Virus record (IMG/VR): IMGVR_UViG_3300037089_000251
Coordinates: 40,510 to 104,509 of that record
Source of the DNA: a virus
DNA length: 64,000 nucleotides
Direction: 5' to 3' (one strand)
Shown here: piece by piece, positions 6,231 to 36,324 of the stretch
Layout: each line of letters opens with the position of its first letter
Position numbering within the stretch: position 1 is the first letter of the stretch
Notes under the pieces: generated by a model
Told to the model about the DNA's origin: nothing
Seen by the model: the letters and a program-made list of their open reading frames with translations, nothing else
The model's database searches: none
Program-made: the position numbers and the translations under genes

Positions 6231-8339
6231 GTGAGTATGGTGACTATAAAGACGGCCTACCTTTCCCCCTCGACTGGGACGCTGGAGATAACGGCGGTCC
6301 GGTCCTTGCAGCCGACTGCCTCCATCGTGCTTGACCTCGGCATACCAAATTTTACCGTCTTTTCAATCAAATTCCCCATCTCCTCCAGCGACCCCATGGA
6401 GTTCAGGCAGGTGAGCAGCGAGGCTCTGGGGGTCATGCTGGACGAGATGACGGCGTTCATGATAAGCACCGGCTACAAGCAGAACGTCATCGCCGGAATA
6501 TACGCCCTCGCCCTCGACTGCTACAAGGGCATGATTGCCAACGACAACCCCGCCAAGCGGGAGAAGGACCCCACCATTGGCAGCATTAGGGGAGCCTTCC
6601 GGCTGCCCCCGGAGTTCATCAACGAAACCCAGAAGTGCGTGGTTACGGCGGCAAAGACCGTCAAGCGGTCACCAAGGGAGCGCAAGCTGGAGTTCACCCC
6701 CTCCCGTCCCCTGACCCCCTCGAAGAACGATGTCCTCAAGGCCATCAAGCGGTACCGTTTCCAGAGCATCAAGAGCCAGCCCTACCCGCTCTACCTGGTG
6801 GTCTACGACAACATGGGTCGCCCCAAGGGGACGCTGTCCTTGGGACCGGGGTTCCACAACGAGCTTCTCAAGATGCAGTACAAGAAGAAGGGGTCCGAAA
6901 ACCCACAGACTGAGCAGGCCAAGACGATAGTCGAGCAAGGCGGAGGGGTGTTCAAGGGCATGTCCGAGGGCATCAACCCCGGCGAGATGCTGGCGTGGTT
7001 CGACACACCTCATCGTTCTACTCTATTCATCCCACTCCAAGGACTTACGGTAGAGGCTGTGGAGCAAGCGATTGAACAGAGCGAGGCTCGGTATGCACAG
7101 GTGGTGAAGCGTGCAGGGCAGTGGGGGCTGCGCTCCTACGACGGGGACAGCGCCCACGACATCCTCGACCGCTACCGCCCGAAGGGCGAGGACACACAGG
7201 GCTTCGACGAGCCGGTACCGGAGGACAGGCTCCCCGACCTTGTCGCCGAGCTTAACTCCATGGACCTCGGCACCCCGGACGCCAAGCAGGACTACCTCGC
7301 CGTGGTGGTGTTCCTCGTCACCCACGGCTCCGACATCCCCGACGACCTCCGCCAGTGTGCCCTTGGCATCGCCCATGAGCTTCACGGCGACACCGAGGGC
7401 AGGAATCCGGGCGGGACCACCGACCGGGGCTACAAGCTCTGGAAGGACCCCTTGGGGCGCAAGAAGGAGCTTGAGAAGGAGATGGCCATACTTGAGGGCG
7501 ACAGTGCCAAGGTGGCCAGCCTGTGGGGGATAGAGAAGCAGGTGAAGGAGGACTTCGACCCGGATGTCCTCATCGACCCCCTGACCAACATCTTCGGCAA
7601 GCTCCAGCCGGAATACCGCAACAAGCTCAAGCGGCTCCTCCTTAAGCCCAGCCACAAGACCTGGAACGACGCCTTCAGCATCATCGTGAGCGGCGGCGGG
7701 AAGTTCATGACCCTATGGCAGGCGGTCATCGCCGTGGACCCGTGGTTCCCGAGGACTGGCCCACGTGAGGACTTCAAGGGCAACCTGATATCCGGCTGGG
7801 AGAAGATTCCCGACCGCAAGACCATCATCCAAGCGCTGCGCTATGCCAACCCGGTCAAGCACGAGAAGAAGTTCAACCCGGACGACCTCAAGTTCCTTGA
7901 GTCCATGGGCATCAAGACCAGCAGGTTCCTCCGCACCGAGGAGATGCGGGCATGGGGTCAGGGTAGGCAGGACGAGTATTACTCCCAGCACCCCGAGCTT
8001 GGGAGTCCGGGAAAGAAGCTCAACCTGATGGTTACAGAGCCGGATGGCACCTCTGTGCCCTTGGCGAAGGCAGTCAGGGCAGACCACACCAACGCCGAGG
8101 GCTACTGGGCGGGCGAGGGCAATGCGGCCAGCGGCATACTCCCCATATGTACAACCACCGGAAGGATTTGCCTTGCTTGGCGCAGTCCCTATGTGAACGA
8201 GGGAAGCTGCTGGGGAACCATCGGTGGGGCGGTCAAGAGAGGGATGCAGCCCGGTCCCAGCGCCGAGGAGGAGCTTGCGGAGGAGACGGGGTATACGGGC
8301 GATATCAAGTTGTATCCAGCTTTTGTCTTTACTGCTTAA
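6231..8339 (+). CDS. Multi-module (probable virion) protein ending in the N-terminal half of a Nudix hydrolase
   Basis: Nudix box GGAVKRGMQPGPSAEEELAEETG close to the C-terminus; ORF stops 14 residues later; unrelated modules separated by KxA/RxA motifs. Confidence 0.7.
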   Translation: MSMVTIKTAYLSPSTGTLEITAVRSLQPTASIVLDLGIPNFTVFSIKFPISSSDPMEFRQVSSEALGVMLDEMTAFMISTGYKQNVIAGIYALALDCYKGMIANDNPAKREKDPTIGSIRGAFRLPPEFINETQKCVVTAAKTVKRSPRERKLEFTPSRPLTPSKNDVLKAIKRYRFQSIKSQPYPLYLVVYDNMGRPKGTLSLGPGFHNELLKMQYKKKGSENPQTEQAKTIVEQGGGVFKGMSEGINPGEMLAWFDTPHRSTLFIPLQGLTVEAVEQAIEQSEARYAQVVKRAGQWGLRSYDGDSAHDILDRYRPKGEDTQGFDEPVPEDRLPDLVAELNSMDLGTPDAKQDYLAVVVFLVTHGSDIPDDLRQCALGIAHELHGDTEGRNPGGTTDRGYKLWKDPLGRKKELEKEMAILEGDSAKVASLWGIEKQVKEDFDPDVLIDPLTNIFGKLQPEYRNKLKRLLLKPSHKTWNDAFSIIVSGGGKFMTLWQAVIAVDPWFPRTGPREDFKGNLISGWEKIPDRKTIIQALRYANPVKHEKKFNPDDLKFLESMGIKTSRFLRTEEMRAWGQGRQDEYYSQHPELGSPGKKLNLMVTEPDGTSVPLAKAVRADHTNAEGYWAGEGNAASGILPICTTTGRICLAWRSPYVNEGSCWGTIGGAVKRGMQPGPSAEEELAEETGYTGDIKLYPAFVFTA

Positions 8340-11766: not shown

Positions 11767-12296
11767 AGGCATGGACGCTGAGAGAGCCTTGGGCTAGCCT
11801 CGTGGTCATCGGAGAGAAGAAGTGGGAGACCCGCTCCCGGCCGAACTGGAAGCTCGTGGGCACGAGGGTCGCCATCCATGCCGCCAAGAAGTTTGACAAG
11901 GGCCTGCTGGACGAGGACAGCGGCATCTTCAAGAATGACTTCTTCAACACCGCACTGGCCAAGTACGACATCGACCCCGACATGTTCGCCCTCGGCAGCG
12001 TCATAGGGTTCGTCCGAGTGATGTCCTGCGACAGGGTTGAGTCTATCAGGGGGTTTCTTCGCTCTGACCAGTTGGCCTTCGGGGACTGGTCTGACGGGAG
12101 GTACTGCTTCCGCCTGGTGGACCCAGAGATGATTGAGCCTGTTCCCGCCAAGGGGGCGCTGTGCGTCTGGGAATGGGACATGAAAGGCTACTACCCCGGC
12201 AGCGACCCGCTGGCAGGATATAGGAACCTAAGGGTGCCTGCGATGGGGCTGGAACCCAGTACATCCCTCCTAGATTTGGAATACCCACACCTTTAG
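11763..12296 (+). CDS. ASCH domain protein
   Basis: TLREPWASLVVIGEKKWETRS..IHAAK, PVPAKGALCVW. Confidence 0.85.
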   Translation: MKAWTLREPWASLVVIGEKKWETRSRPNWKLVGTRVAIHAAKKFDKGLLDEDSGIFKNDFFNTALAKYDIDPDMFALGSVIGFVRVMSCDRVESIRGFLRSDQLAFGDWSDGRYCFRLVDPEMIEPVPAKGALCVWEWDMKGYYPGSDPLAGYRNLRVPAMGLEPSTSLLDLEYPHL

Positions 12297-14039: not shown

Positions 14040-14171
14040 GGAATCTATGAGCATGCTTGCCGACATCCTGCTGTCTCGTATCCTTTGCCTTGGGGCAAGC
14101 ATCTAATGTTGGAACTCAGTATTATCGCTTAGACTGGCTTGGCCAGAATCAAACTACATGGAATGGTTAAT

Positions 14172-14759
14172 ATGAGCACCACCTACTACAAGTCCAAACG
14201 GGCATTTGACGTATCCCTCACTCTTTTGGCGATGCTGGCTGGCCTCCCCCTTTTCCTGGTAATCGCTGCCTCCATCTGGATGACCTCCAAGGGTCCCATC
14301 ATCTTCCGGCAGAAGCGGGTGGGGTGGAAGGGCAGGGATTTCATGATGTACAAGTTTCGTACCATGAGGCCCGGAACGAGCAGGCGTCTTGACCTCGTCA
14401 CCAAGAACGACCCACGGGTTACGTGGGTGGGAAGGTTCCTCCGGGCGACCCACCTGGACGAGCTTCCTCAGCTTTTCAACGTCCTCAAGGGGGACATGAG
14501 CTTGGTTGGTCCCCGCCCCGAGGAGTACAATCTGGCACAGCACCTCTCCGAGAACATCCCCGGCTATACCGAGGCTCTCGACATGATGCCGGGTCTGACG
14601 GGTCTTTCGCAGCTTTGCGGCCGGGAAAAGGTAAATGCGCTGGGACGTAGGTTCGAGGTGAGGCTCCACAGGTGGTACAGGCGCAATAGAAGCTTCGCTT
14701 ATGACGCCCTTTTGGTTCTGGCCACCGTCCCGCACGTGATTTTGCGCCGGGGCGTGTAA
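14172..14759 (+). CDS. Monotopic phosphoglycosyl transferase (bacterial sugar transferase, PglC/WcaJ C-terminal type)
   Basis: KRAFD, FRQKRVG, YKFRTM, DELPQLFNVLKGDMSLVGPRPE, PGLTGLSQ. Confidence 0.92.
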   Translation: MSTTYYKSKRAFDVSLTLLAMLAGLPLFLVIAASIWMTSKGPIIFRQKRVGWKGRDFMMYKFRTMRPGTSRRLDLVTKNDPRVTWVGRFLRATHLDELPQLFNVLKGDMSLVGPRPEEYNLAQHLSENIPGYTEALDMMPGLTGLSQLCGREKVNALGRRFEVRLHRWYRRNRSFAYDALLVLATVPHVILRRGV

Positions 14760-14948
14760 AATAATTCCGAAAAACACGACTACCGGGAGTATTATATGAG
14801 TGGAGGGAATCACGGGACACCGAGACACCCTCCATATTATAGCCCACGACTCCTACATTCCCCGGCAAGACCGTGGATGGCACCAAGGGGGGTCGGAAAT
14901 TCTGAGGGGGCGGACGCCCGGCGACTGCCCCCTCTTAGAGATTGCACC

Positions 14949-15026
14949 ATGCTGATGAACGTCACCATGCCGCACACACAAACGCAGACCCAAATTAGGG
15001 CTGGCGGCGGAGCCTGCTCGGGATAA
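14949..15026 (+). CDS. Putative attenuator leader peptide MLMNVTMPHTQTQTQIRAGGGACSG
   Basis: Codon run ACA CAA ACG CAG ACC CAA ATT matches the downstream tRNA set; 3' end overlaps the antiterminator arm; double TAA stop. Confidence 0.7.
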   Translation: MLMNVTMPHTQTQTQIRAGGGACSG

Positions 15027-15079
15027 TAAAATCCGAGCCGAGACTCTTCAGCCGCCCAAAAGGCGGCTTTCGTGTTTTT
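15003..15079 (+). promoter_or_regulatory. Attenuator: antiterminator (15003-15056) mutually exclusive with intrinsic terminator (15050-15079)
   Basis: Terminator AGCCGCC-CAAAA-GGCGGCT-TTCGTGTTTTT. Upstream GGCGGC(GGAG) at 15003-15012 is complementary to (CTTC)A-GCCGCC and encloses GCTCGG/CCGAGC. Confidence 0.72.
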
Positions 15080-15245
15080 AGGGGGGTTATGGGCAGCGTG
15101 AGCTTGACCGAGGTTGACAGGAACGACCCTTGGGATGTATTCTTGGACAAGCACCTTCCCGAGAAGGAAGATACTCAGGAGGCAGGTGCTCCAAGGCGGG
15201 GCGGTATCCGCTTGGTAAAAAGCGGCGGCACCGGGATGCGGAGGC

Positions 15246-15614
15246 ATGATGGCCAAGTTCGAGCAGCATTGCTTCGATTGCAAGGCTATCCTCGGCAATA
15301 GGCATGAGGAAGTCAATCGGTGGATGGACGGGCTGTTCTGGAAGAAGGGACCCGCCCACAGGCGCTTCCGGCACCACATGCACGGGGTCAGGAAGGCACA
15401 GGAGCTTTTCGGTCCCGAGGGAGCCAAGGCAGCCATCGTCCACATCGTCAGGGACATGGGTGCGGTGCCGAGGGAGAGGGACTACGACGAGGTACCGGAG
15501 GGGGTCACGATTTTCCCCACTTTCTGTGCCCCGCCGCTAGGCTTCGACCAGCACTTTGACATGTTTCAAGAGAAGACCGAGGAAGAGATTAAGAGGATTC
15601 TGGGGGAGACGTAA
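15246..15614 (+). CDS. Hypothetical His-rich phage protein
   Basis: H..HRRFRHH..G motif; RBS GGAGG. Confidence 0.6.
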   Translation: MMAKFEQHCFDCKAILGNRHEEVNRWMDGLFWKKGPAHRRFRHHMHGVRKAQELFGPEGAKAAIVHIVRDMGAVPRERDYDEVPEGVTIFPTFCAPPLGFDQHFDMFQEKTEEEIKRILGET

Positions 15615-15696
15615 GGGATAGACCATGGGGTTTCCGGGCAGTATTGAGCCGTGCAATGAGGCTCCATAGCCCCCTTTTCCTCCCCCATCAGGTTTT

Positions 15697-15772
15697 TGGC
15701 GGGTAGCTCATCTGGCAGAGCGCAGTCCTGATAAGACTGAGGTGATGGGTTCAACTCCCATACCGCCAACCA
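15697..15772 (+). tRNA. tRNA-Ile(GAT)
   Basis: Cloverleaf; CAGTC-CTGATAA-GACTG; TTCAA T-loop; encoded CCA. Confidence 0.9.
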
Positions 15773-15776
15773 TATT

Positions 15777-16109
15777 ATGGAAAAACGGCTCCTGTTCTCG
15801 CTCACGAAGAGCGATTTCGACTTCGAGACGTTCTGTACGGGAGGCAAGGGAGGACAGCACCGCAATGCCAAGCAGAACGGGGTGCGCTGCATCCATCCTC
15901 CGTCCGGGGCACGGGCGGAGCACCGTGACGGGCGGGACCAGTACCGTAACAAGCAGGAGGCTTTCCGCAAGTGCGTCGGGTCCCCGGAGTTCAAGGCATG
16001 GCACCGGCTGGAAGTGGCCAGAAGGCTGGGGCAGCTTGGTGACATCGAGCGCAGGGTAGATGAGATGATGCGCTCGGAGAACCTGAAGTTTGAGTTAGTG
16101 GAAGCATAG
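15777..16109 (+). CDS. RF-1 (GGQ) domain peptidyl-tRNA hydrolase / release-factor-like protein
   Basis: GGKGGQHRN...VRCIHPPSG....RDQYRNKQEA. Confidence 0.85.
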   Translation: MEKRLLFSLTKSDFDFETFCTGGKGGQHRNAKQNGVRCIHPPSGARAEHRDGRDQYRNKQEAFRKCVGSPEFKAWHRLEVARRLGQLGDIERRVDEMMRSENLKFELVEA

Positions 16110-16115
16110 TTTTGT

Positions 16116-16190
16116 GGCACCGTCGTCCAGCGGCTAGGACCTCCGCCCGATTAGCGGAAGACCTCGGTTCGAGTCCGAGCGGGGCTACCA
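16116..16190 (+). tRNA. Atypical tRNA (loop CCGATTA, nominal anticodon GAT, Glu/Asp-like D arm)
   Basis: Good D, anticodon and T stems and CCA, but C33, U37 and an A-G mismatch in the acceptor stem. Confidence 0.65.
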
Positions 16191-16194
16191 AGTT

Positions 16195-16302
16195 TGTGGG
16201 GCGGTAGGACTCCGCTTAATCGAGCGAGCCGAGGGAGTGACCCCGGCAGTGTCGTACCTTAAAGTGGCGTACACACGCAAGAATTCAATAGACTCGCCCA
16301 CA
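16195..16302 (+). ncRNA. Unknown multi-branched RNA within the tRNA array
   Basis: Closing stem TGTGGG/CCCACA around three hairpins; no ORF. Confidence 0.45.
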
Positions 16303-16359
16303 AGGTTTAGCTCGCCTGCCATGCGCAGGAGGAGTTGAGGTCGCCTTAGGCGTCCTTTG

Positions 16360-16435
16360 GCCGGTGTAGTTCAGTTGGCAGAACGCACGCCTCGTAAGCG
16401 TGAAGTCGCAGGTTCGATGCCTGTCACCGGCTCCA
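16360..16435 (+). tRNA. tRNA-Thr(CGT)
   Basis: CACGC-CTCGTAA-GCGTG; acceptor GCCGGTG/CACCGGC; CCA. Confidence 0.92.
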
Positions 16436-16441
16436 TTTTCT

Positions 16442-16516
16442 GCTGCCGTATCACAGTGGTAGTGAGCCTGCTTGGTAAGCAGGAGGTCGCTGGTTCGAGT
16501 CCAGCCGGTAGCTCCA
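16442..16516 (+). tRNA. tRNA-Thr(GGT)
   Basis: CCTGC-TTGGTAA-GCAGG; CCA. Confidence 0.9.
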
Positions 16517-16522
16517 TTTTAA

Positions 16523-16597
16523 GCCTTCGTAGCTCAGTGGCAGAGCGCTTCCTTGGTAAGGAAGAGGTCGTGGGTTCGATTCCCACCTTCGGCTCCA
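16523..16597 (+). tRNA. tRNA-Thr(GGT), second copy, mismatched acceptor stem
   Basis: CTTCC-TTGGTAA-GGAAG; acceptor GCCTTCG/CTTCGGC has 3 mismatches. Confidence 0.8.
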
Positions 16598-16601
16598 TTT
16601 G

Positions 16602-16676
16602 GTCGGTGTAGCTCAGTTGCAGAGCGCCGGTCCCGTAAACCGGAGGTCGGGGGTTCAAAACCCCTCATCGGCTCCA
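16602..16676 (+). tRNA. tRNA-Thr(CGT), second copy with C33
   Basis: CCGGT-CCCGTAA-ACCGG; CCA. Confidence 0.82.
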
Positions 16677-16689
16677 TCTTGAGGTTATC

Positions 16690-16899
16690 ATGTGGCGTCA
16701 GGGAAGATTTCGGAAGACGAACGATGGCCAAGCCCCACGCTTCACCTATATGATATGCTGGGTGGAGGACAGGGCAGCCCTGAAGGTCGGGAAGTTCGTT
16801 AACTTCAAGGATGTCGAGGGTCTGTGGGAGGTCACTTGGCTATCGACCATAACCAGCAAGACCCGCCCCCGTCAGACCTGGCATGTCGGGGGACTATAA
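16690..16899 (+). CDS. Small hypothetical protein inside the tRNA array
   Basis: GAGG RBS; fills the gap between tRNAs. Confidence 0.55.
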   Translation: MWRQGRFRKTNDGQAPRFTYMICWVEDRAALKVGKFVNFKDVEGLWEVTWLSTITSKTRPRQTWHVGGL

Positions 16900-16903
16900 G
16901 TTT

Positions 16904-16988
16904 GCTACCGTGGCTCAGCGGCGACAGCACCGGTTTTGTAAACCGGCAGAGAAATCTCACAGCGGTTCGAGTCCGCTCGGTAGCTCCA
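16904..16988 (+). tRNA. tRNA-Thr(TGT) with long variable arm
   Basis: CCGGT-TTTGTAA-ACCGG; GAGA-AA-TCTC variable arm; CCA. Confidence 0.85.
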
Positions 16989-17044
16989 GTTTGTGGTTGC
17001 CATCTGCATGGTTTATGATGCGTCTGGCAACCAAGTAAGGTTGT

Positions 17045-17120
17045 TCCGGGGTCACTTCTAACGGTAGGAAACTGGGCTTTGAACCCAGGAATGGGGGTTC
17101 GACTCCCTCCCCCGGAACCA
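17045..17120 (+). tRNA. tRNA-Gln(TTG)
   Basis: CTGGG-CTTTGAA-CCCAG; U1-A72; CCA. Confidence 0.88.
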
Positions 17121-17127
17121 AGATTGT

Positions 17128-17201
17128 TCCAGAGTCGTCTAACGTAGGATGCCGCTCTTTGAAAGCGTGCGATGGGGGTTCGATTCCACCCTCTGGAACC
17201 A
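17128..17201 (+). tRNA. tRNA-Gln(TTG), second copy
   Basis: CGCT-CTTTGAA-AGCG; acceptor TCCAGAG/CTCTGGA; CCA. Confidence 0.82.
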
Positions 17202-34277: not shown

Positions 34278-34910
34278 ATGGTTGTCTACAAGGGTGAGGA
34301 CTTATCAGGAAAGTTTTTTGGATATTGGGAAGTTATTAAACCCATACGGGAGGAATATCCGTATAAAGGGGGAAGCAAGTCTCGGTGGGTATGGGTGTGC
34401 CGTTGTAAGTGTGGAAAAGAAAGACCACAGCGTAGGGAATCTCTTATAAAGGGGTTTACCAAGTCTTGTGGATGCATGGCACTCCTGTTTATGCACGAAG
34501 CCCGCATAAAGCCTGACCAGCACCGGTTGAAGTGGGCTGCTTACAGGAATTATAAGTCTGCTGCCAAGCGGCGTGGCTATGGTTTTTCTCTATCGTTTGA
34601 TGAGTTCAAGGTTCTGATGGCTTCAGACTGTCATTACTGCGGAATGCCCCCGTCACTAGTCTACAAGGATGATTATCTGGAAAAGGCTTCAAGTTTTTAC
34701 AAGGCTCAGGCGAGGGATTTCTTGTACAACGGAGTAGACCGTGTTGATAATCGACTCGGATATACATCGGAAAACTGTGTTGCAGCCTGTGGTCCCTGCA
34801 ACCGTTCCAAGCACGCAATGACATTGGAAAATTGGCTGAAGTGGATAAGCAGACTATATGAGTACCAATTTTCAAAAGGAGATAGAAATGCCCCAAAAGC
34901 TCAAGATTAA
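34278..34910 (+). CDS. HNH-type homing endonuclease (paralog of 8389-9150)
   Basis: WVCRCKCG..SCGC, CHYCG, NGVDRVDN..GY...NCV.AC..CN; low GC. Confidence 0.85.
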   Translation: MVVYKGEDLSGKFFGYWEVIKPIREEYPYKGGSKSRWVWVCRCKCGKERPQRRESLIKGFTKSCGCMALLFMHEARIKPDQHRLKWAAYRNYKSAAKRRGYGFSLSFDEFKVLMASDCHYCGMPPSLVYKDDYLEKASSFYKAQARDFLYNGVDRVDNRLGYTSENCVAACGPCNRSKHAMTLENWLKWISRLYEYQFSKGDRNAPKAQD

Positions 34911-36324
34911 CCCTATTCTCGATACTGATTCCTATAAGCTCTCACACTGGGTTCAGTACCCCCCGGATACGGAGTATGTCTACTCTTATCTGATGAGTCG
35001 GGGTGGATTCTGGAAGAACACCCTGTTCTTTGGGCTTCAGTATACTCTGAAAGCTTATTTTGAGGGCAAGGTTTTTGATAAAAAAGACGTGGAGCAGGCC
35101 GCCGCCGAGTCCTTCAAGCATTTCGGCAATGGCGACGTGTTCAATTACAAGGGCTGGATGCGGCTCCTCAAAAAGCACGGAGGGATACTGCCCCTGCATG
35201 TCCGGGCGGTCCCGGAGGGCATGGTTGTCCCCGTCAAGCACCCCATCATGACTATTCAGAACACTGACAAGGAGTTCCCGTGGCTGACCAACTGGGCGGA
35301 GACCCGACTACTGAGCGGCACTTGGTACCCCATCACGGTCGGGACGCTCTCTTTTGAAATCAAGCAGGCCATCGGGGCGGACCTCGTGCGCACGGGCGAC
35401 CCCTCGCTCCTGCCCTTCAAGCTGCACGACTTCGGATACCGGGGCGTCTCCTCGCAGGAGACGGCAGCCATCGGCGGGGCTGCCCACCTTGTCAACTTCA
35501 TGGGCACCGACACCATGGCTGCCTTGGCGCTCTTGGAGCAGTACTACGATGCCGACATGGCGGGGTTCAGCATCCCGGCTATGGAGCACAGCACCGTTAC
35601 CTCGTGGGGCGAGGAGAACGAGGCTGACGCCTACGAGAACATGATTGACAGGTTCCCGAACGGTCTCGTGGCGTGCGTCATCGACTCCTATGACCCGCAC
35701 CGGGCGGTAGCGGAGATATTCGGCGGCAAGCTGCGGGAGAAGATTCTCCGCAGGGGCGGGACGGTCGTCCTGCGCCCCGACTCCGGGGACCCCTGCGTCG
35801 TCATTGAGGACATCTTCAACATCGCCGCCGACAAGTTCGGGTTCGAGACGAACAACAAGGGCTGGAAGGTGCTTCCAAGGCAGATTCGCCTGATACAGGG
35901 TGACGGCGTCAACTACCAGAACATCCTCCGCATCAACTCGCACCTTACCCGTGCGGGCTGGTCGATGGACAACTGGGGCTATGGCATGGGCGGGGCGCTG
36001 CTCCAGCAGCAGAACCGGGACACCATGCGCTTCGCCATCAAGTGCTCCGCCATTAGGCGTGACGGTACTTGGGAGGAGGTCCACAAGACCACCATCACCG
36101 ACCCCTCCAAGGCGAGCATCGGCGGGCGCTTCAACCTGATGCTCACCCCTGACGGGGAGTTCGAGACCTCGCAGGTGGACGACTTCGACGACCGCACGTC
36201 CATCGGCTGCACCAACCTGCTGGAGACGGTGTTCGAGGACGGAAAGGTCACCCGCCACCAGACGCTCGAACAGATTCGTGCCATCGCCAAGGAGTACGAC
36301 CGTTACGACAAAGAGGAGTACTAG
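34888..36324 (+). CDS. nadV: Nicotinamide phosphoribosyltransferase
   Basis: DTDSYK.SH.QYPP, LHDFGYRG, GTDT, EHSTVTSWG, RPDSGDP, IQGDG. Confidence 0.93.
   Translation: MPQKLKINPILDTDSYKLSHWVQYPPDTEYVYSYLMSRGGFWKNTLFFGLQYTLKAYFEGKVFDKKDVEQAAAESFKHFGNGDVFNYKGWMRLLKKHGGILPLHVRAVPEGMVVPVKHPIMTIQNTDKEFPWLTNWAETRLLSGTWYPITVGTLSFEIKQAIGADLVRTGDPSLLPFKLHDFGYRGVSSQETAAIGGAAHLVNFMGTDTMAALALLEQYYDADMAGFSIPAMEHSTVTSWGEENEADAYENMIDRFPNGLVACVIDSYDPHRAVAEIFGGKLREKILRRGGTVVLRPDSGDPCVVIEDIFNIAADKFGFETNNKGWKVLPRQIRLIQGDGVNYQNILRINSHLTRAGWSMDNWGYGMGGALLQQQNRDTMRFAIKCSAIRRDGTWEEVHKTTITDPSKASIGGRFNLMLTPDGEFETSQVDDFDDRTSIGCTNLLETVFEDGKVTRHQTLEQIRAIAKEYDRYDKEEY

Follow-up and report, generated by a model that had tools for sequence, protein, structure and literature searches.

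What decides when a large phage makes its own transfer RNAs (tRNAs), and can such genes be governed by the decoding of the codons that they serve? This question is raised by a locus in the 64,000-nucleotide (nt) stretch of DNA analysed here, referred to as the window, which comprises bases 40510–104509 of the 104.5-kb virus record IMGVR_UViG_3300037089_000251 (G+C 58%). Upstream of nine tRNA genes lies a short cassette, which the initial annotation read as a ribosome-stalling attenuator tuned to the tRNAs encoded downstream. The observation itself proved correct, and, as far as architecture, conservation and co-variation go, the evidence supports the interpretation: 14778–15079 is probably a ribosome-mediated (leader-peptide) transcription attenuator gating an operon of a DUF6915 protein, an RF-1-domain protein and nine tRNAs, and the phage probably makes these tRNAs only when Thr, Gln and Ile codons are decoded slowly. 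Below, the genome of the window is called G000, loci from relatives carry L numbers, and G001 is the genome IMGVR_UViG_3300041809_000571.

The sequences and coordinates first given for the leader open reading frame (ORF), its codon run and the terminator were re-read from the sequence and hold throughout. The cassette consists of the following parts:

14778–14797, plus strand: promoter-like motif GACTACCG-GGA-GTATTAT-AT, the shared head of the cassettes, preceded by an A-tract (14769–14775).
14801–14939, plus strand: structured 5′ untranslated region (UTR), with hairpins at 14801–14834 and 14901–14939 (core 14906–14936).
14937–14941, plus strand: weak, purine-rich Shine-Dalgarno-like AGAGA, read from the sequence, 7 nt before the ATG at 14949.
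14949–15026, plus strand: leader ORF MLMNVTMPHTQTQTQIRAGGGACSG, 25 codons, with TAA at 15024–15026 and a second TAA at 15027–15029.
14976–14996, plus strand: putative regulatory run ACA CAA ACG CAG ACC CAA ATT (T-Q-T-Q-T-Q-I), from the sequence.
15003–15008, plus strand: predicted antiterminator 5′ strand GGCGGC, inside the leader ORF, pairing with 15051–15056.
15009–15047, plus strand: hairpin P1 (GGAGCC-GCTCGG ... CCGAGC-G-G-CTCT), seen in the minimum free energy (MFE) structure, with the stop codons in its loop.
15050–15079, plus strand: intrinsic terminator AGCCGCC-CAAAA-GGCGGCT plus TTCGTGTTTTT, with stem 15050–15056/15062–15068, loop CAAAA and U-tract TTTCGTGTTTTT.

The run has to be read against the array that follows it. 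ARAGORN and Rfam combined give nine tRNA genes, Ile(GAT) twice, Thr with anticodons CGT (twice), GGT (twice) and TGT, and Gln(TTG) twice, with no other amino acids represented. The claim that the array serves Thr, Gln and Ile alone is therefore upheld, with the correction that one Ile(GAT) gene (16116–16190) had been overlooked. The nine genes are:

15697–15772, plus strand: tRNA-Ile(GAT), found by ARAGORN and Rfam (54.7 bits).
16116–16190, plus strand: second tRNA-Ile(GAT), deviant, with C instead of U at position 33, found by ARAGORN and, in the permissive search only, by Rfam (46.7 bits).
16360–16435, plus strand: tRNA-Thr(CGT), ARAGORN and Rfam.
16442–16516, plus strand: tRNA-Thr(GGT), ARAGORN and Rfam.
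16523–16597, plus strand: tRNA-Thr(GGT), Rfam alone.
16602–16676, plus strand: tRNA-Thr(CGT), ARAGORN and Rfam.
16904–16988, plus strand: tRNA-Thr(TGT), 85 nt with an enlarged variable region, ARAGORN and Rfam.
17045–17120, plus strand: tRNA-Gln(TTG), ARAGORN and Rfam.
17128–17201, plus strand: tRNA-Gln(TTG), ARAGORN and Rfam.

Seven consecutive codons all readable by these tRNAs occur at a single one of the 208,976 positions in the six frames of the whole 104.5-kb genome, and that position is 14976. Furthermore, the leader uses codons that are rare in the long ORFs of the phage, ACA making up 5.8% of Thr codons and CAA 19% of Gln codons there; ACA and CAA are the Watson-Crick partners of the array's Thr(TGT) and Gln(TTG). 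The reading frame is formally open from an ATG at 14796 (76 codons). This longer frame was rejected as a protein, having no family match and, in the part 5′ of 14949, frame-breaking indels in relatives. ATG 14967, suggested earlier as an alternative start, reads AAG in L041 and is hence not a conserved start.

Relatives of the cassette were collected from IMG/VR contigs through the DUF6915 protein, as well as by promoter-motif and leader-pattern searches. Six distinct peptide versions of the Thr/Gln/Ile leader are known, counting the window (MLMNVTMPHTQTQTQIRAGGGACSG, MMNITMPHTQTQTQIWAGGGACSG, MMTITMPHTQTTTQIRVGGGACSG, ...MPHITRPHTSTTTQIRSGGGACSG, MLTITMPHTQTQTTISSGGGACLA and MLSMNKPQTQTTQTIGAGGGACSA), in seven distinct leader-plus-terminator sequences. 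The pattern search of viral contigs contributed one new variant (L087), a metagenome scan returned repeat copies of known variants only, and blastn of the leader against 35 loci collected through the RF-1 gene gave a single 30-nt match, to the terminator, in L024. The frame, the start position (within one codon) and the placement of the stop codon in the hairpin loop are conserved in six distinct homologues. Across five distinct versions, 34 of the 35 run codons specify Thr, Gln or Ile despite exchanges between Q and T and synonymous changes. Each leader holds ACA, ACG and either ACC or ACT, thus covering Thr TGT, CGT and GGT (chance 0.06–0.13 per leader), and CAA provides 10 of 12 leader Gln codons as against 19% in phage ORFs (P about 3e-6 when codons are treated as independent). 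Behind every leader of this class that could be followed stands an array of Ile, Thr and Gln tRNAs only. Since the run keeps its set membership while order and codons change, selection acts on the set of tRNAs called and not on the peptide as such. In six sequences whose mean column identity is 74%, the 16-nt block GGCGGCGGAGCCTGCT never varies, even at five synonymous sites, which indicates a constraint at the RNA level.

That leader codons co-vary with array content, as the attenuator proposal predicted for related phages, is borne out by three other leader classes, each matching its own arrays. The 30-nt terminator match in L024 adjoins a Tyr/Leu tRNA array and led to a Tyr/Leu cassette; in L024, L026 and L028 the promoter motif is followed by a leader rich in Leu, Tyr and Ser (MTHVTLASDLLYTLLSG..., MTRLTLSSLRLYSYLSG... 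and MTHVTLSPSLRLYSLYLSY..., respectively) and then by the same type of terminator, before Tyr/Leu(/Ser) arrays. G000 itself carries a second cassette outside the window (minus strand, genome bases ~820–590), with a near-identical promoter motif, a leader beginning MNMATHITLGDIEAVGIAEAAVVCEGGD... (full leader MNMATHITLGDIEAVGIAEAAVVCEGGDTSPSGVIG), a terminator GGCGCTC...GAGCGCC plus T-tract, and complementary segments arranged 1:2 / 2:3 / 3:4. Its array comprises Val(TAC), Val(CAC), Gly(GCC), an odd tRNA-like RNA and Ala(TGC), at which point the contig ends.

In G001 (317 kb, 99% complete), 62 tRNA matches fall into four clusters, each placed after such a cassette (leader-gated arrays L039, L081, L082 and L083). 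One cluster encodes Thr/Gln(TTG)/Ile tRNAs; another Tyr/Leu/Ser, with the leader MKNLSSNSLSSLSYSSSLLSG...; a third Val/Gly/Ala/Asp/Glu/Cys together with Ile(TAT), its leader ...VDLIEAVAAVCEGGD... containing an ATA codon; and the fourth His/Arg/Asn/Lys/Phe/Met/Pro/Gln(CTG)/Trp, with the leader MRNRKPNPMQWQPKRHF.... Jointly the four cassettes cover all 20 amino acids. The match reaches the isoacceptor, the leader of the Gln(CTG) array using CAG and that of the Gln(TTG) array CAA. When leaders and arrays of G001 are set out as a matrix, all 43 of 43 distinct anticodons can be decoded from their own leader, as against 0/5 to 4/5 (0–80%) off the diagonal, and for in-frame windows drawn at random from phage ORFs the probability of covering every anticodon is P = 0.07, 0.004, 0.004 and <5e-6 for the four arrays. 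A cultured example of a codon-matched leader is possibly provided by Caulobacter phage CcrBL9 (L098, MH588546.1), whose 39-codon gp149 (MTRIHTTLPTAKPASTGALTLASWPASSKPLLRHSAVLA, 11874–11993, annotated as a hypothetical protein) precedes an array of 12 tRNAs for Pro/Thr/Lys/Leu/His/Ala/Ser/Trp: all 12 anticodons have a decodable codon in gp149, and 33 of its 38 residues belong to the array's eight amino acids, versus 47% in neighbouring genes.

The arrays of these relatives have further features of their own. Those of G001 sort tRNAs non-randomly, Tyr/Leu/Ser being the bacterial class II tRNAs (long variable arm) and Ala/Val/Gly/Asp/Glu, united in one array, being all the GNN-codon amino acids. 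On the reverse strand of L082 (~2679–2752) lies a tRNA-like gene recognised by Rfam and not by ARAGORN, whose anticodon loop reads TTC (Glu) or TCA depending on register. An amber-reading tRNA with a CTA anticodon, labelled Pyl by ARAGORN, is present in L002, L003 (8295–8369) and L023; L023 has tRNAs at 6738–6813 and 6933–7030 and also a four-base anticodon call (taaa). The CTA and taaa tRNAs are possible suppressor tRNAs.

How could the position of a ribosome on the leader decide the fate of the transcript? The site at 15050–15079 is the top terminator-like site of the region in a terminator scan, and across six homologues its stem positions pair in 100% of cells; two pairs show compensatory changes, and the loops vary in length and sequence. 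GGCGGC within the leader pairs with 15051–15056 at 5–6 of 6 positions in all homologues, and 87.5% of cells are paired in P1, which shows one compensatory change, C-G to U-A, in L036/L039. The antiterminator was originally drawn as 15003–15012 pairing with 15046–15056. Its core, GGCGGC:GCCGCC, is conserved and was retained; the GGAG:CTTC extension pairs in 2/6 homologues and was rejected, GGAGCC belonging to P1, which is present in both states.

With the ribosome modelled as an unpaired block, the flip between the two folds that had been postulated for the window was reproduced in silico. In the absence of a ribosome, or with a ribosome at the stop codon, the terminator forms in the masked MFE structure, and with the A-site on 14976–14988 (up to 14994 with a shorter footprint), 15051–15056 pair with 15003–15008 atop P1, even in the full-length RNA. 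As a switch test the full-length equilibrium MFE works for the window but fails for half of the relatives, and RNAs ending right ahead of the 3′ arm of the terminator were folded in its place. In 14/14 leaders of four classes, a ribosome that has not yet passed the matched codons leaves the 5′ arm of the terminator sequestered in these folds, and sequestration falls sharply one to three codons past the last matched codon; in about half of the 14 leaders pairing of the 5′ arm then amounts to 0–3 nt and stays low.

The head of the cassette is likewise shared. GTATTAT, described at first as a −10-like element, is indeed present, as the 3′ part of a 20-nt family motif, GACTACCGnnnGTATTATrT, whose hexamer spacing is not sigma-70-like. 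This motif lies 5′ of every leader found (those bearing it are the second cassette of G000, L024, L028, L036, L039, L050, L051, L052, L066 and L080) and also precedes at least one protein gene in G001; its placement suggests that it functions as a promoter. A search of 15080–15697 gave no further copy of the family motif, in keeping with the initial annotation. The fold of 14760–15090 has z = −5.9, and the GC-rich hairpin just 5′ of the leader, which is confined to the Thr/Gln/Ile class, keeps its pairing despite altered sequence in L036, L039 and L041. No non-tRNA Rfam family reaches the gathering threshold in the window, and nothing is found in 14760–15090 at E up to 5. A T-box or known Rfam leader family (such as Thr_leader) was discarded, gathering and permissive thresholds returning only tRNAs and noise. 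A helix between 14760–14779 and 15070–15090 in the 331-nt fold was also discarded, its 5′ strand lying upstream of the promoter motif and its complementarity being lost in L036. The A-tract 5′ of the promoter (AAAAACACGA) is exactly complementary to the terminator's TCGTGTTTTT.

We infer from this anatomy that the leader is translated, that transcription can end at the terminator in vivo and that read-through depends on stalling. Transcription would begin at the family-specific promoter-like motif and a ribosome would translate the 25-codon leader. With fast decoding of 14976–14996, the ribosome would proceed to TAA TAA and cover GGCGGC (15003–15008) and P1, leaving AGCCGCC (15050–15056) free for GGCGGCT (15062–15068), and transcription would end at the U-tract. 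Should any cognate aminoacyl-tRNA be scarce, the ribosome would stall on the run and GGCGGC would be exposed; its pairing with GCCGCC atop P1 would form the antiterminator, allowing the polymerase to continue into the tRNA genes. Because the test codons are read by the very tRNAs that the operon supplies, such a switch would constitute negative-feedback control of supply, resolved to the isoacceptor. The hallmarks of attenuators found here are a short conserved leader ORF, enrichment of monitored codons, an intrinsic terminator and, in silico, an antiterminator dependent on ribosome position. A further hallmark is missing: the regulated genes are not biosynthesis or synthetase genes, but tRNAs and RF-1-domain and DUF6915 proteins.

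Several observations weigh against an attenuator. The AGAGA element is weak, as the original caveat about the ribosome-binding site had it; GAGA-type purine runs lie 5–10 nt 5′ of the leader ATG in all leader classes. Most tRNAs are probed by 1–3 codons, far below the his or thr leaders, and CAA 14991 and ATT 14994 lie so near GGCGGC that a ribosome stalled on them may itself mask it, depending on the footprint. The antiterminator core is invariant, so that no covariation is available, and its extension is not conserved. For half of the leaders examined, the terminator persists in the full-length equilibrium fold wherever the ribosome is placed, and in the cut folds the 5′ arm partly re-pairs (4–6 nt) at later codons in the window, L041, the Ala/Val/Gly-class leaders of G000 and G001, L083 and L026. 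Given that equilibrium folds keep the terminator and that the 5′ arm re-pairs past the switch point, the switch would have to be kinetic, as it is in trp, and transcription is assumed to be coupled to translation in the host. Finally, a sigma-70-like match, TTGACA-18-TATTCT, lies 3′ of the terminator at 15114–15143, inside the gene P0002. This site is weakened by a promoter-scan hit count no higher than in shuffles, and the segment holding it is missing from L036, L039 and L041, where the DUF6915 gene begins ~10 nt after the terminator.

What else, then, would the cassette control? A 330-nt non-coding stretch separates a sugar transferase gene from the downstream genes, all on the plus strand. 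After the terminator the order is a 70-residue ORF, the DUF6915-like gene, tRNA-Ile(GAT), the gene for an RF-1-domain (GGQ) protein, the second tRNA-Ile(GAT), four tRNA-Thr genes (CGT, GGT, GGT, CGT), a 69-residue ORF, tRNA-Thr(TGT) and two tRNA-Gln(TTG) genes. The protein-coding features are:

14139–14759, plus strand: bacterial-type sugar transferase (Pfam Bac_transf, 5.5e-57), directly 5′ of the cassette.
15089–15301, plus strand: P0002, 70-residue ORF between the terminator and the DUF6915 gene.
15246–15614, plus strand: P0003, DUF6915-family protein (Pfam PF21866, E 1.8e-4, below the curated cut-off).
15777–16109, plus strand: P0004, RF-1 domain (GGQ) protein of 110 residues, ArfB-like in size (Pfam RF-1 2.5e-10; PHROG 3122 3e-20).
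16690–16899, plus strand: P0005, 69-residue ORF inside the array, with tblastn homologues (42–43% identity) at the same position in L041 and L085.

P0002 is found in the window, L052 and L066 (as a conserved peptide in L052/L066), with a tblastn match in L085 (48% identity), and is missing from L036, L039 and L041; protein-family searches assigned no family to P0002 or to P0005. The nearest Atlas clusters of P0003 are DUF6915, mostly viral, and its homologues in L036–L041 are 73–76% identical and lie immediately 3′ of the terminator. Homologues of P0004 are located within tRNA arrays in most of the 35 related loci; the cultured Tunturiibacter phage Tunturi_4 has an RF-1 gene with no annotated tRNA array nearby. 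The sugar transferase, used as a search handle, gave distant loci only and no useful relatives. Structured non-tRNA spacers lie between tRNAs at 16191–16359 and 16989–17044; the former (169 nt) has a predicted folding energy of −64.5 kcal/mol and is closed by a long helix, GUGGGG...CCCACAAG, and the relative L041 matches its last 54 nt alone (window 16306–16359, 77% identity). Same-anticodon tRNAs are paired, one scoring higher than the other (Rfam bits 54.7/46.7 for Ile, 65.3/57.0 for Thr-CGT, 68.9/58.8 for Thr-GGT and 52.1/44.4 for Gln), and tRNA-Thr(TGT) is 82–86 nt long in relatives. Elsewhere the window encodes a tail sheath, a helicase and a nicotinamide phosphoribosyltransferase, the last at 34858–36324 (PHROG 448, 2e-154).

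The cause of the presumed tRNA shortage has several candidates: host shut-off, host tRNA decay, phage codon demand and tRNA-targeting immunity. The last would make the attenuator a device of counter-defence, sensing that anti-phage or inter-bacterial effectors have destroyed or modified tRNA-Thr, -Gln or -Ile, and inducing replacement, possibly nuclease-resistant, tRNAs together with a ribosome-rescue factor. This purpose is possible and on balance doubtful. Bacterial immune systems are reported to target tRNAs widely, and certain phages to respond with tRNAs of their own (PMC12409363); a type VI secretion system toxin specific for tRNA-Thr(GGU) has also been described (PMC13617354). The pairing of canonical with deviant same-anticodon tRNAs, one with C33, and the RF-1-domain gene in the same transcription unit also point this way, and 1–3 test codons per tRNA would fit near-total loss better than mild starvation. 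However, four G001 cassettes spanning all 20 amino acids look like general supply control and not like a reply to one nuclease, and general tRNA-supply feedback fits that coverage at least as well as counter-defence does; the evidence, moreover, does not separate nuclease damage from host shut-off, codon-usage demand or starvation.

It is improbable that the small ORF and the hairpin are real and act by another route, leader translation affecting Rho loading or the way in which the tRNA precursor is processed or kept stable, or the hairpin serving as a processing or stabilising element. Precursors of tRNAs are heavily processed, the U-tract TTTCGTGTTTTT is interrupted, and equilibrium folds of several homologues never lose the terminator. 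Against this, a hairpin plus U-tract forms a canonical intrinsic terminator in all four classes, each leader ORF holds a copy of the 3′ strand of the terminator right after the matched codons, and in 14 leaders the point of masking moves with the end of the matched run; such features are difficult to account for unless strands compete for the 5′ arm.

Least probable, the comparative pattern weighing heavily against it, is a coincidence or by-product, in which a CA-rich low-complexity ORF lies beside the ordinary terminator of an upstream transcript and the array is constitutive from another promoter: the run (ACACAAACGCAGACCCAA) is CA-rich with a 6-nt period and the sigma-70-like site at 15114–15143 exists, but homologues vary and yet keep set membership at the codon level, three other leader classes match their own arrays to the anticodon (43/43; P 0.07 to <5e-6 per leader), and L036, L039 and L041, with the first operon gene ~10 nt after the terminator, leave no room for a promoter.

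Leader-peptide attenuation thus remains the favoured reading, and it can be set beside known systems. Among the multivalent attenuators of enterobacteria, the thr leader monitors Thr and Ile codons, and the ilvGMEDA and ilvBN leaders monitor Leu, Val and Ile codons. Like these, the phage element has a short leader rich in monitored codons, a stop codon followed by an intrinsic terminator, several amino acids per leader, and an antiterminator 5′ strand that would be masked by a ribosome past the test codons. Unlike the thr and ilv leaders, which control biosynthetic enzymes and report amino-acid supply through tRNA charging, it would control the tRNAs themselves along with RF-1-domain and DUF6915 proteins; its codons are chosen per isoacceptor (ACA/ACG/ACC, CAA versus CAG, ATA), usually 1–3 per tRNA and without long runs, and it shares no sequence or Rfam relationship with those leaders. 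In Escherichia coli, the pheST (pheM) leader-peptide attenuator controls phenylalanyl-tRNA synthetase. It resembles the phage element in attenuating a component of the translation apparatus by sensing the decoding of cognate codons, and differs in controlling a synthetase, in responding to a single amino acid, in its cellular genome and in having no feedback via tRNA abundance. With T-box riboswitches the element shares a choice between terminator and antiterminator that reports the state of a specific tRNA; a T-box, however, binds uncharged tRNA directly via a specifier codon and does not need translation, whereas the phage element has a conserved ORF.

The nearest published inducible tRNA array is the trn operon of Anabaena sp. 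PCC 7120, a supernumerary array under repression by TrcR that is reported to be silent under normal conditions and switched on by impaired translation (PMC8421152, PMC10272220). The likeness lies in a silent array induced under translational stress. The Anabaena operon differs in having a ribbon-helix-helix repressor acting on the whole array, in residing on a cyanobacterial megaplasmid and in having no codon-matched leader per sub-array. Full-text literature searches yielded no account, phage or cellular, of tRNA genes controlled by a leader peptide, which agrees with the earlier statement that no phage tRNA operon under such control had been described. The mechanism itself is known; its use on tRNA genes is the new respect.

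Why and when phages use tRNA genes is debated, the proposals including compensation for codon usage, decay of host tRNAs and escape from tRNA-targeting immunity. If the attenuator reading is true, tRNA arrays would be conditionally expressed and governed by the decoding speed of the codons they serve, a feedback principle for which the same searches found no precedent among the tRNA genes of any organism. With a codon-matched leader the idea lends itself to direct experiment, by means of reporters or a defined transcription-translation system, and the element would offer a small, naturally occurring sensor for the supply of single tRNAs, one that could serve as a tool elsewhere. More tentatively, large phages may run their tRNA sub-arrays as demand-induced modules, in which each leader polls every encoded isoacceptor, senses when the host pool collapses, cleavage by anti-phage tRNA nucleases being one such cause, and replaces exactly what is missing while an RF-1-type factor is co-induced to free stalled ribosomes. 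The leader would then be a roster, readable from sequence, of the tRNAs in one transcription unit.

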